Shown here piece after piece: positions 12,020 through 16,868 of a stretch of 20,000 nt of DNA. Source of the DNA: an uncultured virus (IMG/VR IMGVR_UViG_3300028553_000005) (Duplodnaviria; Heunggongvirae; Uroviricota; Caudoviricetes); IMG/VR virus record IMGVR_UViG_3300028553_000005, positions 116,429 through 136,428 of that record; one strand, given 5' to 3'. A program made the position numbers and the translations under genes. The first letter of the stretch is position 1. Every line of letters starts with the position of its first letter. The notes below the pieces were generated by a model, which was not told the DNA's origin, searched no databases, and worked only from the letters and a program-made list of their open reading frames with translations.

Positions 12020-12620
12020 ATTCTTTAATCTTTTCTTTCAAAATTTGTTTGAACTTTTCTTTATCATAATGTAGAAATGGTTTATACTTCACACATTTGG
12101 TTTTAAAATTAGGCCAAACAATATCATCATATATTTCTTTTTCCCACATTGGGAAAAAATTCATTAGGTCGTTCAAAATGATAAGTGTTTCAAGTGTTAC
12201 ATCTCCTTGTGTAGTATATTGCATCAACTTAGGAAATTCATTGCTTCTTACCACCAATAAATCATTTGGATTCTCTACTTTATTCAATAATACAATTATA
12301 TCATTTTCAAAGGTATAAGTCAAGCTTTGTATTCTTTTCTGCCACTTTTTGTAATTTTCTTCGGATTCTGGTCCTAATATATCACCAACCCATTGAACAT
12401 CATCTACCAAAAAATTGGCAATATAATAATCTTTTAATTCTGTCAATCCAAATTTACGAGATAATCGGTAGAATGAATATTTGTCTTTTCTGGTAGAGAA
12501 TGTTGTTTTGGTAACATTGGTCTTACCATTGTATTTGATGTAATCATAACTGTCGGATGTAAAATGCAATTTCATTGCATGAAACATCGCAAACGCAGCA
12601 AAGCCTGAATTCTCAATCAT
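12012..12620 (-). CDS. gp59: Helicase loader gp59
   Basis: AMKLHFTSDSYDYIKYNGK...RKDKYSFYRLS...ETLIIL...KYKPFL motifs; gp33-gp59-gp32 gene order. Confidence 0.85.
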   Translation of the reverse strand: MIENSGFAAFAMFHAMKLHFTSDSYDYIKYNGKTNVTKTTFSTRKDKYSFYRLSRKFGLTELKDYYIANFLVDDVQWVGDILGPESEENYKKWQKRIQSLTYTFENDIIVLLNKVENPNDLLVVRSNEFPKLMQYTTQGDVTLETLIILNDLMNFFPMWEKEIYDDIVWPNFKTKCVKYKPFLHYDKEKFKQILKEKIKEYA

Positions 12621-13216
12621 AATGAAAACGGAAGTTCCCTAATCCAAGTTGTTACAATATATTTGTGACCTTTTATCACCGGTTCACCTGAATGCATTGT
12701 GTTTATGTTATCATTTTTATTTTTGTAATCATATCGAAAGTATAACATACTTCCTTTTTTGGGGTCAACCGATAGATTTAATTTTGTGAATGTGGTTTGA
12801 CCACCTTCTTCAACATCATTGAGGTAAACAATAACTGTGCCTACTCTATTACCAACACCAGCAACAATATCATTATATGTTGGTATCACATCTTCAAAGT
12901 AATCCCAATGTGGTACATAACGACCACCAATATCATAACGAAGCATTGTTAAGGCTTCAAATCTTTTCTTACTGATACCTATTTCTTTTTCTATTTTATC
13001 GTGGAGATTTACTACTAGAGGATTACCATGATCAAACCAACAGTCTTTACTAATTCTAAAACTGTCCATCTTTTCATTGAAACCAGTATCAACATTTACG
13101 ACATTTGAATCCGTCAGTAAAGGATCACCGGCTTTGGTGATATCATCACATTCATCATTTGTTAAAAAGTTTTCTATATGAATTATGTGTGGTATCTTAC
13201 ACAACATTCTTTTCAT
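12617..13216 (-). CDS. Prolyl 4-hydroxylase-like 2OG-Fe(II) oxygenase
   Basis: ENFLTNDECD, YVPHWDYF, NRVGTVIVYLNDVEEGGQTTF, MHSGEPVIKGHKY (HxD...H triad). Confidence 0.9.
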   Translation of the reverse strand: MKRMLCKIPHIIHIENFLTNDECDDITKAGDPLLTDSNVVNVDTGFNEKMDSFRISKDCWFDHGNPLVVNLHDKIEKEIGISKKRFEALTMLRYDIGGRYVPHWDYFEDVIPTYNDIVAGVGNRVGTVIVYLNDVEEGGQTTFTKLNLSVDPKKGSMLYFRYDYKNKNDNINTMHSGEPVIKGHKYIVTTWIRELPFSL

Positions 13217-13434
13217 ATAGGCAGTTTAGAACTTTTCTTCAACATATTGTTATCTTGTGCCTCTTCTTTAATCTTTGCTTTCAGAGCGGATGAGATTAAG
13301 GTGGCAGCCACTTCAACTTCTAAACCAGTTTCTTTACAATGGTGACAGATAGCGTCCATATAACCTATTCGTTTATCTGTTACCATTTGTTCAATCATCA
13401 TACTAAATTTTTTAATTTCTTCACGATTAGGCAT
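13213..13434 (-). CDS. gp33: Late transcription coactivator gp33
   Basis: FSMMIEQMV...YMDAICHHC...EVEVAATLISSALKAKIKEEA motif; upstream of gp59. Confidence 0.85.
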   Translation of the reverse strand: MPNREEIKKFSMMIEQMVTDKRIGYMDAICHHCKETGLEVEVAATLISSALKAKIKEEAQDNNMLKKSSKLPI

Positions 13435-13437
13435 AAT

Positions 13438-13980
13438 TTAAATTCTACTGTAAAATATATGATTACCTATTTTCGTTACAACCTTTTGTTTATTCCAGCC
13501 AGGATTTACATAAACTGCATGGTAATACAATGCGTTTGTTTCTGCTATTTTATCATGTAAAACTGAAACTGTCAATGCTCTTTTTGCAATTAGTAGAGAT
13601 TCTTCCCATCTATACCGATCCTGTCCATGTACCATTTCTTTGACCATACAAGTCCATGAAAATTGGCATACGGTTCTTAAATTTTGATCCGTTGTTTTTT
13701 GATAAACAACAGCGCATATGTCTGTAGGAAATTGACCACTCTTAACACGATTCATTGTGACCTGTGCTACGGCCAATTTACCCTCATAAGATTCACCTGC
13801 GGACTCATAGTAAATATTTTTGGCGAGGCATTCAACTTGTTTTAAATAATCCGCTGATACTTGTTTTTGTGTTGTATTTGTAATAAACTCTCTCGATAGA
13901 GTTGGTGCTGTATATACTATTGTTAATACAGCTAATATTACTGCTAATGTGTTAAACTTCTGTGTGTTAAATTTAAACAT
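13438..13980 (-). CDS. SleB/Hydrolase_2-family cell wall hydrolase with an N-terminal signal or anchor
   Basis: CLAKNIYYESAGE...AVAQVTMNRV...ICAVVYQ...CQFSW...ALYYHAVYVNPGW...IGNHIFY. Confidence 0.9.
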   Translation of the reverse strand: MFKFNTQKFNTLAVILAVLTIVYTAPTLSREFITNTTQKQVSADYLKQVECLAKNIYYESAGESYEGKLAVAQVTMNRVKSGQFPTDICAVVYQKTTDQNLRTVCQFSWTCMVKEMVHGQDRYRWEESLLIAKRALTVSVLHDKIAETNALYYHAVYVNPGWNKQKVVTKIGNHIFYSRI

Positions 13981-14000
13981 CTTTCTTCCTTATTGATTGC

Positions 14001-14022
14001 GGCGGCCAAACATCTGACCGCC
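14001..14022 (-). promoter_or_regulatory. GC-rich intergenic hairpin (GGCGGTCAGA-TG-TTTGGCCGCC) without a U-tract
   Basis: Inverted repeat between the 92-aa ORF and the hydrolase gene. Confidence 0.55.
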
Positions 14023-14033
14023 TTGGTCTCCAA

Positions 14034-14312
14034 TTACGAATTCGTTTTCTTTGTAATTTTTACTTCAGGTTGTGGAGGGGTTTGCGAAACGAAACCATTG
14101 AGCATCTCTGCTTTTTTAATGATTTCTTCTTCGGAGGGAAATGGTGGAAAACCTGGGTGTTGTGGTGAAGGAGTTCCGTTAATCTTGGATTCTTCTACCT
14201 TGGTTGTCCACTCGTTTGAAATAACTTCACGCTTGCCATAATAGTCATCGGTGAGCATTTCTTTGGCCATTTTTAAGAGTTCTAGCCGTATCTCATAGGG
14301 TGTCATACTCAT
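14034..14312 (-). CDS. Conserved phage hypothetical protein (MTPYEIRLELLKMAKEML...)
   Basis: Strong SD AAGGAG. Resembles a small protein recurrent in T4-like environmental phages; function unknown. Confidence 0.8.
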   Translation of the reverse strand: MSMTPYEIRLELLKMAKEMLTDDYYGKREVISNEWTTKVEESKINGTPSPQHPGFPPFPSEEEIIKKAEMLNGFVSQTPPQPEVKITKKTNS

Positions 14313-14378
14313 TTACTTCTCCTTGTGTGTGTTTATGTGTATTACCAGCGGTTTGTGTGATGCTGGTGATTTATTTAT

Positions 14379-14668
14379 CCAGGTGATTCTGTTGCTAAGT
14401 TCACCTGGCGAAACTCCGCTTACCTGTTAGGCAGCAAGTGCATACATATTATCGTTTGCGTTTAATTCAATTAGTGATTACGCCTTCTCTGGCGATTCTC
14501 CATTGTTCTAATTATTGCCATGTCGAATCTAGGCACCCCCATCAGAAGTATATTACCACAACTATAATGTGTGTTTGCTACCGGAAACTCGGTTCGTTAA
14601 TATACTTTTGGTGGAGGTGGTGGGAATCGCACCCACGTCCACAACAACTTTCAAACAACTTCTACGAA
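14379..14668 (-). ncRNA. ssrA: Circularly permuted (two-piece) tmRNA: acceptor piece ~14668-14609, intervening segment 14608-14541, coding piece 14540-~14379
   Basis: Minus strand reads GGAC-GTGGG-TGCGATT-CCCAC-CACCTCC-A-CCA first, then GGGGGTG-CCTAGATTCGAC. The 7-bp acceptor stem has a G3.U pair and an A discriminator. The tag frame at 14459-14427 encodes ANDNMYALAA*. Outer boundaries are approximate. Confidence 0.93.
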
Positions 14669-14835
14669 TTACTTTACAGCTTCAGTATGCTTATGTTTCA
14701 AAGATTTTTTCAGTAACTTAAGCCAAAGTTTTTTAACCTTTTCAACATTATGATGAACTTCAGCTTCATATAGTTTTTTAATTAACTCTTTAACTTTCAT
14801 AGAATCTTCCTTTAAACAACTTCTACGAATTACTT
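14653..14835. repeat. 22-bp exact direct repeat AAACAACTTCTACGAATTACTT at 14653-14674 and 14814-14835
   Basis: Direct comparison of the two copies; each includes the AAG TAA end of a minus-strand small ORF. Confidence 0.95.
14669..14800 (-). CDS. 43-aa basic microprotein (MKVKELIKKLYEAEVHHNVEKVKKLWLKLLKKSLKHKHTEAVK)
   Basis: Not in the ORF track. SD AAGGA; fills the space between the two 22-bp repeats. Confidence 0.7.
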   Translation of the reverse strand: MKVKELIKKLYEAEVHHNVEKVKKLWLKLLKKSLKHKHTEAVK

Positions 14836-14940
14836 CAACACAAAAAGCATTGTAATTACACCCAATGCAAAAGCACAGGCACCGGTGTAAAATGCAAAAC
14901 TTTTTACTTTAACTTGTCTTACACATTCTTTGCTAGGCAT
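14830..14940 (-). CDS. 36-aa single-pass membrane microprotein (MPSKECVRQVKVKSFAFYTGACAFALGVITMLFVLK)
   Basis: SD AAGGA; TAATG stop/start overlap with the upstream ORF; hydrophobic C-terminal half. Confidence 0.7.
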   Translation of the reverse strand: MPSKECVRQVKVKSFAFYTGACAFALGVITMLFVLK

Positions 14941-15065
14941 TACAGTATCCTTTCTAGTAACCAAATAACAAAAAGAAAACTTAGACCACCAGCCAAAAAT
15001 TTTAAAGCCCCGTACTGTCTTTCGTTTTGCTCGGGTGTGCAGAGTTTTTTCCAATATTTGTTCAT
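14940..15065 (-). CDS. 41-aa single-pass membrane microprotein (MNKYWKKLCTPEQNERQYGALKFLAGGLSFLFVIWLLERIL)
   Basis: Not in the ORF track. AGGA upstream, translationally coupled to the next ORF, hydrophobic C-terminus. Confidence 0.7.
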   Translation of the reverse strand: MNKYWKKLCTPEQNERQYGALKFLAGGLSFLFVIWLLERIL

Positions 15066-15073
15066 AGTGTCCT

Positions 15074-15102
15074 ATTATAAGTGTTTATACTTATATAGGC
15101 AA
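15074..15102 (-). promoter_or_regulatory. sigma70-type promoter TTGCCT-17 nt-TATAAT in front of the microprotein/tmRNA unit
   Basis: Minus strand reads TTGCCT ATATAAGTATAAACACT TATAAT; late-like TATAAGTA/TATAAACA lie in the spacer. Confidence 0.6.
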
Positions 15103-15179
15103 GCGATTTGTTCATTATTACCACAAAAAGTCCCGTCCTACCACCTATTTTATATTATGAAATAGGAAACATACCAACT

Positions 15180-15614
15180 TTATGGACACCAACTGGTCTT
15201 GGCCTCACCATAGTATTCCCGTGCATATCCTTGTTGGATCAACATGGAACGCAACGATTGACCATTCAGTAATACATCACCTAGGACACGACCACCATAC
15301 TTGTCCCAACTCATTAATACCACTTGCCGAGTTGTGGCCTGTTCTACCATTTTCTTGGTAAATGCTGTGGCCGCTTGTCCTCGTGCATCTTCTGACGGAC
15401 ATTGAGCACGATGGCCTTTTTCTGGTGTATCAACACCAAATACACGAATTGATAATTCTTTCTTTAATGGTTCTGGTAACCATAACGCTTGAAATGCCAC
15501 AGTATCACCATCAATAACTCTAGTGAGTGTTGCATTGTATGTTACACCAGTTTTTTGTTGTTGTGCAAAAGCCAACATTGGTACAAATAATAATGAGAGT
15601 AATAGTTTTTTCAT
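15180..15614 (-). CDS. Secreted thermonuclease (SNase-like)
   Basis: Signal peptide; RVIDGDTV, IRVFGVDTPEK, DKYGGRVLGDV, LIQQGYAREY motifs. Confidence 0.9.
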   Translation of the reverse strand: MKKLLLSLLFVPMLAFAQQQKTGVTYNATLTRVIDGDTVAFQALWLPEPLKKELSIRVFGVDTPEKGHRAQCPSEDARGQAATAFTKKMVEQATTRQVVLMSWDKYGGRVLGDVLLNGQSLRSMLIQQGYAREYYGEAKTSWCP

Positions 15615-16267
15615 TTTTGTTTTCCGTAATAAATTATAGCCTCGACTAATCCATCTATATATTCAGCCGTCTTTTGTTGGAATAATAATGGCTTTTCATT
15701 CTCTACTGCCATAATAATTACAGTATTATTAATTGGTGTATCAATCATATCTTCATACATCAATGCATATGCCGCAGTTTGCCAAAAGTATTCTTTGATA
15801 TCATCTCTTGTTTTTATATTCTTTGATGTTTTGAAATCAATCACAGATAATTCACCATCAAACTCACCAATACAATCAACACGACCTGCCATGCCTAATT
15901 GTTTAGACCATAGTGCCTGTTCTTGATAGTGTATATTGTTAATTCGATTGAGAAATGGTTTGATTGATAAAAACATCTCATAGGCATCTAGTTTAACACC
16001 AGGTTCAACCACTTTATTGTTTAGATAATCTTCACATAAAACGTGAACTGCTGTACCACGAGAGGTTGCTTTCTTTGTGATTGCATTGGCAACATCTTCA
16101 CCCACACGCTTACGCCATTCCATGATGGCCTGTTTCTTCTGAGCACCAAGAACAGTTGTTACTGATGGTAATTTTGTGCCATCTGGTAATAGATAGAATC
16201 TTCTGCCATCAGGAAATGTTTGTGCTTCTAAATCTTCGAGGTTTTTTGGTGGGCAATAGTTAAACAT
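15611..16267 (-). CDS. PD-(D/E)XK-family exonuclease
   Basis: LPSVTTVL, RGTAVH, AGRVDCI...IDFKTS, YFWQTAAYA motifs. Confidence 0.85.
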   Translation of the reverse strand: MFNYCPPKNLEDLEAQTFPDGRRFYLLPDGTKLPSVTTVLGAQKKQAIMEWRKRVGEDVANAITKKATSRGTAVHVLCEDYLNNKVVEPGVKLDAYEMFLSIKPFLNRINNIHYQEQALWSKQLGMAGRVDCIGEFDGELSVIDFKTSKNIKTRDDIKEYFWQTAAYALMYEDMIDTPINNTVIIMAVENEKPLLFQQKTAEYIDGLVEAIIYYGKQK

Positions 16268-16268
16268 T

Positions 16269-16868
16269 TTAATTCACAAACTCAATCCAACCAGTAATAA
16301 CATACTTGGTTTGTCCACCAAGTGGTGGGTTACCACGGTGTGTATGTGTATAGGCTGATGGCCATACTACTAATCGACCTTCTACTGGATCGATTCTTTG
16401 GCCTGTGTATAAAAATTCAGTTTCACCACCCTTATTAATCGAATTCAAATATAATAAGAAAACTCCTAATCGAGCATTCATATCACGGCTGCCATTCTCA
16501 CAATGCCAAATATGATAACCTTCTGTTGGTTTTGTTCTCTGCACTTTTATAGTGTAGATCATTTGTTGTGGCATATTTTTAATTACGGAGAATTCTTTGG
16601 CGTATAAAGGATAACACTCTTGCCAAAAGGTGTTTGTGAATGTTTCAAAATGATCACCTAGATTATCTCTAGAAAATGAAATAGTTTTAGGATCAAGTAA
16701 TGATGTTGATGTATCAGATTTAAAAGTTTCAGTTGTGTAATCTCTTTGCCATGTTTTTCCCATAGCATCAAGTTCTTCAAAGTAATCAATCATCGCTTTA
16801 CAGTATTCGCTACTGTAGAAACCATCGTATATGCCTACGAAATCATCAAACTGCACATTCTTATTCAT
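16269..16868 (-). CDS. 2OG-Fe(II) oxygenase (phage type)
   Basis: GYHIWHCE...LYLNSINKGGETEFL...WPSAYTHTHRGNPP...KYVITGW. Confidence 0.9.
   Translation of the reverse strand: MNKNVQFDDFVGIYDGFYSSEYCKAMIDYFEELDAMGKTWQRDYTTETFKSDTSTSLLDPKTISFSRDNLGDHFETFTNTFWQECYPLYAKEFSVIKNMPQQMIYTIKVQRTKPTEGYHIWHCENGSRDMNARLGVFLLYLNSINKGGETEFLYTGQRIDPVEGRLVVWPSAYTHTHRGNPPLGGQTKYVITGWIEFVN

Follow-up and report, generated by a model that had tools for sequence, protein, structure and literature searches.

Permuted ssrA gene in the window

The analysed DNA, termed the window throughout, comprises 20,000 nucleotides (nt) of an uncultured virus and represents the last 20 kb of the 136,428-bp IMG/VR virus record IMGVR_UViG_3300028553_000005, for which CheckV gives a completeness of ~82%. 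The window encodes homologues of T4 gp5, gp48, gp53, gp4/head-closure, gp2, tail tube protein, gp26, gp32, gp59 and gp33, and on its minus strand, between an exonuclease gene and the gp33 gene, lies a gene for a circularly permuted, two-piece transfer-messenger RNA (tmRNA; gene ssrA). Gene order, a conserved fold and a tag under peptide-level selection were computed, revealing an intact permuted ssrA gene. We consider it roughly 85% probable that this permuted gene is functional and belongs to an aquatic, T4-like myophage that is still uncultured. The whole tmRNA was read on the minus strand of the window, where the 5' to 3' direction of the RNA corresponds to descending coordinates. The gene and its parts are:

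14336-14703, minus strand: permuted tmRNA (ssrA) gene, ARAGORN extent, 368 nt, tag ANDNMYALAA*
14609-14669, minus strand: predicted acceptor piece (5' strands of helix P2, T-arm, acceptor 3' strand, ACCA), from sequence, Rfam alignment and covariation; 5' end predicted
14669-14640, minus strand: P2 5' strands, from sequence
14636-14632, 14631-14625 and 14624-14620, minus strand: T-arm, consisting of GUGGG, loop UGCGAUU and CCCAC, from sequence
14619-14613, minus strand: acceptor 3' strand CACCUCC, followed by ACCA ending at 14609, from sequence
14541-14608, minus strand: intervening sequence, 68 nt, predicted to be removed from the precursor
14379-14540, minus strand: predicted coding-piece core (GGGGGUG to post-tag hairpin/pseudoknot), from sequence, Rfam and covariation; 3' end predicted
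14540-14534, minus strand: acceptor 5' strand GGGGGUG, pairing with CACCUCC over 7 bp
directly after GGGGGUG, minus strand: D-loop analogue CCUAGAUUCGAC, from sequence
14522-14495, minus strand: P2 3' strands, from sequence
14481-14494, minus strand: hairpin CGCC-AGAGAA-GGCG at the position of pseudoknot 1 (pk1), from the Rfam structure
14427-14459, minus strand: tag frame GCA AAC GAU AAU AUG UAU GCA CUU GCU GCC UAA, encoding ANDNMYALAA*
14379-14416, minus strand: post-tag element, in which GAG (14416-14414) pairs with CUU (14399-14397) in the hairpin loop
14344-14367, minus strand: terminal hairpin ACCAGC/GCUGGU, found in close relatives only and without a U-tract

On the RNA strand, the acceptor piece is followed by a 68-nt intervening stem-loop and then by the coding piece, with the CCA (14609) preceding G1 (14540). 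The tRNA-like domain is complete, comprising the 7-bp acceptor stem, whose third pair is G14538.U14615 (G3.U70), the A discriminator with CCA, and the T-arm. The ends of the intervening sequence lengthen the acceptor stem by 13 more bp, as evident from a 22-nt inverted repeat (14534-14555 / 14598-14619). P2 consists of four short helices (AUUC/GAAU, GUUU/GAAC, UGU/GCA and GUG/CAU), all of which are backed by covariation; the P2 pairing had been sketched at the correct location in the original prediction, which was made from the raw sequence. The post-tag hairpin has 8 bp (CCAGGUGA/UCACCUGG), and its loop pairs with the upstream GAG to form a pseudoknot. The coordinates given in that prediction were all correct on direct reading of the sequence; the total of ~220 nt for the mature pieces would hold if the predicted ends are 14669, 14609, 14540 and 14379.

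Both ARAGORN and Rfam detected the gene without any tuning. ARAGORN called a permuted tmRNA with a tag identical to the one predicted, ANDNMYALAA*. The comparison with Rfam models by Infernal, which had been proposed as a further check, was split. RF04321 (tmRNA_permuted) scored 119.4 bits (gathering threshold 47, E 3e-23) over 14427-14669, RF01850 (beta_tmRNA) 99.4 bits (gathering 84, E 2e-29) over 14375-14715, and RF01849 (alpha_tmRNA) passed with a lower score of 67.8 bits (gathering 50), while RF01851 (cyano_tmRNA; 39.6 bits, gathering 70) and the one-piece tmRNA model (19.5 bits, gathering 47) failed on the window. According to PMC11915505, RF04321 is a merged alpha/beta/cyano model of the tRNA-like domain only; its match, therefore, says "permuted tmRNA" and nothing more specific. 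With the alpha and beta models both above threshold, the subtype of the window tmRNA is ambiguous. Two detectors, the covariation of the fold and the surrounding T4-like DNA support the prediction of a phage-encoded, circularly permuted two-piece tmRNA.

Covariation of the fold

Relatives were collected as at least 120 IMG/VR loci (designated by L numbers) matching a permuted-signature pattern in which the acceptor stem, its G.U pair and the T-loop end were fixed. A permuted tmRNA was found by ARAGORN in 109 of the 121 listed loci, the window's own locus included. L005 is 100% identical to the window, and the remaining listed relatives are graded down to ~67% identity. The window and 30 related viral tmRNAs (31 sequences) were aligned, with the structure derived from the window pairs and the Rfam alignment.

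In this alignment, 88.7% of 1888 cells were paired vs 39.5-49.6% when the 3' partners were slid by 1-3 columns; since the structure was taken from one aligned sequence, the unslid register is favoured on this measure. Changes on both sides were seen at 36 of 62 pairs, compared with 15-21 in the slid controls, and double-change cells numbered 233 vs 36-46. None of 500 shuffles reached any of the five covariation measures. For P2, 14 pairs in three helix blocks were assessed, 12 of them with double changes and 75-99.5% of cells paired. The two outer pairs of the T-arm covary, as do the pairs by which the acceptor stem continues into the intervening sequence. Double changes occur at 7 of the 8 pairs of the post-tag hairpin, and one pair of its pseudoknot alternates between G-C (16 sequences) and A-U (14 sequences). 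The terminal hairpin at 14344-14367 is paired in 65% of cells overall, with C-G to U-A changes in L073 and L107. The covariation alignment of related phages that had been proposed along with the prediction, thus, revealed compensatory changes in P2, the T-arm, the intervening stem and the post-tag hairpin/pseudoknot, and P2 resolved into its four short covarying helices.

Selection on the tag peptide

The tag resumes on the Ala codon GCA, ends in a hydrophobic ..LAA degron and is terminated by UAA. Among 85 distinct phage tmRNAs of the listed loci, 64 encode a tag of the AN[DE] type with LAA at its end. Over the four final codons of these 64 tags, minor letters were counted 24, 6 and 130 times at codon positions 1, 2 and 3, respectively; each Ala position shows the full set of four Ala codons, and Leu is encoded by five different codons. 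Variation mainly at third positions implies that the peptide is under selection, and the substitution pattern is the signature of peptide-level selection expected of a tag that is read as protein.

This bears on whether the RNA might mainly titrate host SmpB or block host trans-translation instead of tagging proteins itself. A precedent is provided by mycobacteriophage DS6A, whose tmRNA is reduced to little beyond the tRNA-like domain (PMC4131195, PMC11915505); a DS6A-like molecule is reported in PMC4131195 to inhibit tmRNA strongly, perhaps via SmpB titration. The reduction of pk1 to a hairpin in the window would also fit such a decoy. The window tmRNA, however, has a full mRNA-like domain, in which the resume codon, the stop codon and the post-tag pseudoknot are kept, and its tag is conserved by synonymous change (130 third-position vs 6 second-position cells). 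Selection on the peptide argues against a pure decoy role, which we regard as quite improbable.

Probable contact between T-loop and D-loop analogue

The T-loop UGCGAUU had been noted as a departure from UUCGAxU. The sequence is as read, but it is not an anomaly: UGCGAUU is the commonest T-loop among the phage-family tmRNAs of the listed loci, and it is a family trait that covaries with a change in the D-loop. Among 150 distinct viral loci, 68 have G at position 2 of the T-loop, and 62 of these show "AG" in the D-loop analogue; of 59 with U at this position, 58 have G at the corresponding D-loop position (Fisher p ~6e-28, uncorrected for relatedness). By analogy with the G18-psi55 contact of tRNA, this looks like a covarying tertiary pair. 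The same combination of a G at this T-loop position and "AG" on the D-loop side is found in alpha-type bacterial tmRNAs, which helps to explain why both the alpha and the beta model fit the window.

A second, T-loop-agnostic pattern scan yielded 109 distinct viral loci, with 86 T-loops of the U[GU]C[AG]A type, 13 of the alpha-type GGCRG and 10 others. The notion that alpha-type T-loops are absent from phage tmRNAs was rejected on the basis of these 13 loci; it was an artefact of the pattern that fixed the T-loop end. T4-like neighbours were present at 5 of the 13 GGCRG-type loci. It appears that T4-like phages carry tmRNAs with either of two types of tRNA-like domain. The loci L259, L267, L352, L360 and L368 have an alpha-type GGCRG T-loop together with at least one homologue of the window's neighbour genes.

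Gene size and the pk1 position

The original prediction described the tmRNA as miniaturised. Its ARAGORN extent of 368 nt is close to the median of its phage relatives (372 nt) and lies within the range of sampled bacterial two-piece tmRNAs (346-441 nt), so that this description does not apply to the total extent. It applies, to a modest degree, to the coding core, as measured from G1 to the post-tag loop motif: this distance is 154 nt in the window, the 11th shortest of 154, compared with a phage median of 161 nt (range 134-234) and a median of 199 nt (minimum 164) in the sampled bacteria. The short core is due to the short tag, to the short spacer between stop codon and motif (40 nt vs a bacterial median of 75 nt) and, in the window subclade, to the missing extra hairpin of ~25 nt. 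Compactness is a family trait, and the difference is modest.

At the pk1 position, variants of the 4-bp stem in the alignment include CGCC/GGCG, CGGC/GCCG, CGUC/GACG and CACC/GGUG, with 70.6% of cells paired. A possible second stem (CUAA/UUAG) together with an extra hairpin of ~25-30 nt was found in L120, L031, L086 and L045. The extra hairpin, GGUUGAG-GAUA-CUCGGCC, is located between the pk1-position hairpin and the tag (alignment columns ~254-283); it is carried by L120, L031, L086, L045, L009, L079, L100 and others, whereas the window subclade has neither this hairpin nor the CUAA/UUAG stem. In E. coli, pk1 can be replaced by a hairpin. The presence or absence of the extra hairpin and of CUAA/UUAG among close relatives constitutes a natural series for pk1.

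RNA libraries and proposed function

Parts of the stretch were found in 24 metatranscriptome runs, all but one of which are labelled lake, river or other freshwater. Four runs (X1-X4), from four freshwater or lake studies, were compared as Logan assembled contigs. In three of these studies, the contigs match the coding piece at ~96-99% identity and continue into the beginning of orf92, the next gene downstream; the cover extends over 14241-14531 at ~96%, with the one-codon-shorter tag of ANDKYALAA relatives, and over 14323-14526. Close relatives of the window tmRNA are, therefore, present in freshwater RNA libraries. A contig of X1 spans upstream flank, acceptor piece and intervening sequence in one stretch, in a form without a 161-nt segment that holds the small open reading frame orf43 in the window; as it runs across the intervening sequence, it represents either precursor or DNA. 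The contigs of X2 and X3 stop at 14531 and one of X4 at 14526, leaving uncovered the first 9-14 nt of the predicted coding piece. Reading these ends as processing sites was rejected because assembly graphs break at acceptor sequence that is shared by many tmRNAs; the coverage gap of X2-X4 at 14532-14608 carries no weight as a sign of processing.

From tmRNA biology, the following course would be expected. Host RNase P would cut the precursor 5' of G14540, and trimming would leave the encoded CCA (14609) as the 3' terminus. Pairing in the acceptor stem (7 bp) and in P2 (~14 bp) would keep the two pieces together. Host alanyl-tRNA synthetase (AlaRS) would charge the RNA through G3.U70 and the A discriminator, and host SmpB and EF-Tu would bring it to ribosomes stalled on broken mRNAs. 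Translation would resume on GCA and add ANDNMYALAA, a ClpXP-type degron, with release of the ribosome at UAA. Free ribosomes and recycled amino acids would be the likely benefit while the phage destroys host DNA and mRNA, a condition under which the host is no longer able to renew its own tmRNA. A role against mRNA-cleaving defence systems is speculation.

Several points weigh against a functional gene of this kind. Processing, charging and tagging are deduced from established tmRNA biology, and the RNA-library contigs demonstrate neither transcription nor strand or processed ends and may contain DNA. No SmpB domain was found at E <= 1 across the 136-kb record, which is ~82% complete; this agrees with the predicted lack of smpB and reliance on host factors. 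The 4-bp hairpin with its purine loop at the pk1 position has no complementary downstream strand in the window. No terminator-like site was detected in 13900-15200 and, hence, none 3' of the gene. The 161-nt orf43 segment parts the gene from its usual upstream flank, and the 5' end is a predicted one only. Finally, the acceptor stem, its G.U pair and three G-C pairs of the T-arm are invariant in the alignment; this was forced by the retrieval pattern and has no evidential weight.

Tagging of host proteins for degradation early in infection, to supply amino acids for phage synthesis, rather than ribosome rescue, is offered as an alternative by Buchholz et al. (PMC9004378), and the canonical ..YALAA degron retained by most relatives would fit it. 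We consider this unlikely, given that tmRNA enters only stalled ribosomes and that this RNA has no targeting feature; tagging and rescue are, in any case, not separable by sequence.

Comparison with known systems

The original prediction implied novelty, which does not stand. Two-piece ssrA genes of aquatic T4-like phages at the gp33 locus were published in 2022 (PMC9004378), and the window is a further example. In Melnitz, a phage of OM43 (Methylophilales), and in pelagimyophages, Buchholz et al. (2022, PMC9004378) describe an ssrA in two pieces that immediately precedes the gene of the gp33 coactivator; a permuted tmRNA was present in 17 of 47 Melnitz-like contigs. Permuted tmRNAs were called there by ARAGORN in 53 phage genomes, among them HTVC008M, Mosig, Caulobacter phiCbK-like phages and several cyanomyophages, and a glutamine riboswitch in the 3' domain is called common, not defining. 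The tmRNA set of PMC11915505 includes 79 phage sequences.

For HTVC008M (KC465899.1, L242, ~145103-145414), the permuted tmRNA was confirmed, with the tag ANFNEYALAA and scores of 90.6 bits for RF04321 and 83.8 bits for alpha_tmRNA. It is situated between the exonuclease and gp33 genes and is without annotation in the GenBank record, though it is contained in Table S1 of PMC9004378.

Like Melnitz, Mosig and HTVC008M, the window belongs to an aquatic T4-like myophage and has a permuted, ARAGORN-callable tmRNA gene upstream of gp33 on the same strand. It differs from all three by two extra genes, orf92 and a cell-wall hydrolase gene, which separate ssrA from gp33, and by the orf43 repeat scar on the upstream side. 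Unlike Melnitz and Mosig, which have one, the window shows no glutamine (glnA-type) riboswitch; no match reached the gathering score anywhere in the window, and none was found within 14250-14850 even at E <= 1. Compared with HTVC008M, nucleotide similarity of the window is limited to 35 nt, and the best lineage model is beta, not alpha.

With the beta two-piece tmRNAs (RF01850), the window shares a full-length match, a canonical-like T-arm/D-loop type, a 10-residue tag of the ANDxxYALAA type and a post-tag hairpin in the same place; unlike RF01850, it is without the final 9-bp hairpin of the model and has G for U at T-loop position 2 and A for G in the D-loop analogue. With the alpha two-piece tmRNAs (RF01849, Caulobacter type), it shares the post-tag GGRGUU strand, the hairpin loop ..GCAACAGAA, and the combination of a T-loop G (position 2) with "AG" on the D-loop side. 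In contrast to the window, the sampled alphaproteobacterial tmRNAs mostly have the T-loop GGCRGUA instead of UGCGAUU, and typically tags of 11-12 residues or more and a longer stop-to-motif spacer. The one-piece phage tmRNAs (mycobacteriophage Bxz1 group, Bacillus phage G) and DS6A are likewise phage-borne, and the available part of Hudson et al. (2014, PMC4131195) reports no phage smpB for them; unlike the window, on which the one-piece model fails, they are not permuted or lack a tag.

The structural call from raw sequence was correct, while the biology itself was already catalogued. What the window and ~100 uncultured relatives add is breadth, in the form of a graded series with clean covariation support for the fold. 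Further additions are the selection on the tag, the T-loop/D-loop contact that explains the odd T-loop, the subclade with a hairpin for pk1, and the relatives in freshwater metatranscriptomes. The phage family is a reasonable natural test set for dispensable parts of two-piece tmRNA; it opens no new question.

Gene neighbourhood

On the minus strand, the order is exonuclease, SNase, orf74, orf43, tmRNA, orf92, cell-wall hydrolase (Hydrolase_2) and gp33. The flanking genes with assigned coordinates are:

15611-16267, minus strand: PD-(D/E)XK exonuclease gene, upstream syntenic anchor (phrog_298, E 9e-72)
14034-14312, minus strand: orf92, conserved phage protein immediately 3' of the tmRNA, matching viral hypothetical clusters only in Atlas
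13213-13434, minus strand: gp33-like late-transcription coactivator gene, downstream (PF16805, E 5e-20)

At least one homologue of the window's neighbour genes was found in 88 of the 120 other listed loci; among the 65 loci that measure 2.5 kb or more, the number was 53. Exonuclease homologues occurred in 54, hydrolase homologues in 42, orf92 homologues in 30 and gp33 homologues in 27 of the 120. The start of orf92 lies 24 nt beyond the ARAGORN tmRNA end, behind AAGGAG, and its homologues are not always beside a tmRNA. No Pfam or PHROG family matched orf92, and with only viral hypothetical clusters in Atlas, the idea that it is a phage substitute for SmpB was set aside.

The 136-kb record also encodes tRNA-Met (two copies) and tRNA-Thr. 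Its gp32 is only ~56-57% identical to those of cyanomyophages and Pelagibacter phage HTVC008M, which implies that there is no close cultured relative.

This context also bears on a non-phage source, be it host DNA, the remnant of an att site or a chimeric assembly. According to PMC9004378, integration at tmRNA genes is common, and fragments of these genes occur in prophages. The gene in the window is, however, complete and has T4-like genes on both sides, and the same context recurs in many independent contigs and in cultured HTVC008M, by which such a source is effectively refuted; we assign it a negligible probability.

Origin of the gene

An independent permutation had been suggested for the phage gene. 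The piece order, the four-part P2, and the post-tag GGRGUU strand with its ..GCAACAGAA-loop hairpin are, however, common to alphaproteobacterial two-piece tmRNAs, and a variant form of the same features is seen in the Rfam beta consensus and in Burkholderiales. As piece order, P2 layout and post-tag motif match those of proteobacterial two-piece tmRNAs, an independent permutation is not supported. Statements on the beta lineage rest on Rfam and on citations within PMC9004378.

For a possible donor, the 368-nt gene was compared by BLAST with 76 listed bacterial permuted tmRNAs and with samples of 401 Burkholderiales and 401 Alphaproteobacteria genomes, in which SAR11 and OM43 were not specifically targeted. 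In all of these bacterial samples, matches were confined to ~60 nt of the tRNA-like domain. Such matches were found in 65 of the 401 Burkholderiales genomes at E <= 1e-3 and in 31 at E <= 1e-5, compared with 2 of the 401 Alphaproteobacteria genomes at E <= 1e-5.

The higher count in Burkholderiales would be consistent with a fresh acquisition from a current, betaproteobacterial host, as would the better score of the beta_tmRNA model (99.4 vs 67.8 bits). The distances of tmRNA and exonuclease do not covary significantly either: across 435 pairs from 30 distinct loci, leaving out L005 (identical to the window) and 6 duplicate rows, the Spearman coefficient was 0.134, reached by 92 of 999 permutations, with distances that are largely saturated. 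Against recent capture from a host stands the fact that no searched bacterial genome matches past the ~60 nt of the tRNA-like domain, and that the gene occupies a single syntenic position across dozens of diverged phage contigs. The best lineage model, moreover, switches between close relatives, being beta for the window and alpha for L120 at 88% identity. Recent capture in place of a long-standing phage gene is, thus, considered unlikely. The Rfam alpha/beta subtype was rejected as a guide to origin: of 20 phage loci, 9 were beta-best, 10 alpha-best and 1 neither.

Tentatively, the tmRNAs between the exonuclease and gp33 genes of aquatic T4-like phages might represent a long-lived two-piece lineage of the phages' own, a reading that we hold to be possible rather than probable; the alternative is that they are host-derived morons. 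Such a phage-own lineage would be recognised by a T-loop G (position 2) that is matched by A in the D-loop analogue, by a compact coding piece and, for the window subclade, by a plain hairpin where pk1 would be. It may be tuned to the SmpB and AlaRS of several hosts during host shut-off, or against mRNA-cleaving defences.

Upstream flank and minor observations

Three further features were located at or upstream of the tmRNA 5' end:

14650-14674, minus strand: 25-nt direct repeat, copy at the true tmRNA 5' end
14811-14835, minus strand: 25-nt direct repeat, upstream copy, 24/25 identical, partial duplicate of the tmRNA 5' end
14670-14800, minus strand: orf43, lysine-rich 43-amino-acid open reading frame between the repeat copies

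orf43 is intact in 6 of the 120 other listed loci, at 78-100% amino-acid identity. The upstream neighbour of the tmRNA is either orf74 (e.g., L036, L089, L073) or orf43 (L045, L009, L120, L031, L076), and both are present only in the window and its identical twin L005. Since the two arrangements are joined only there, the 25-nt repeat looks like a recombination scar between them.

A promoter scan of 13900-15200 was uninformative, with 3 promoter-like sites vs 3.8 expected from shuffles. A TATAAT-like hexamer is present ~7-12 nt 5' of the first P2 strand in L046, L112, L109, L054, L111, L096, L075 and L062, in alignment columns ~20-45; the window has no such hexamer beside the gene. In these distant relatives, the position of the hexamer suggests that the 5' end of the acceptor piece is the start of the primary transcript.

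Two paralogous 2OG-Fe(II) oxygenase genes (PF13640), at 12617-13216 and 16269-16868 on the minus strand, flank the tmRNA neighbourhood.

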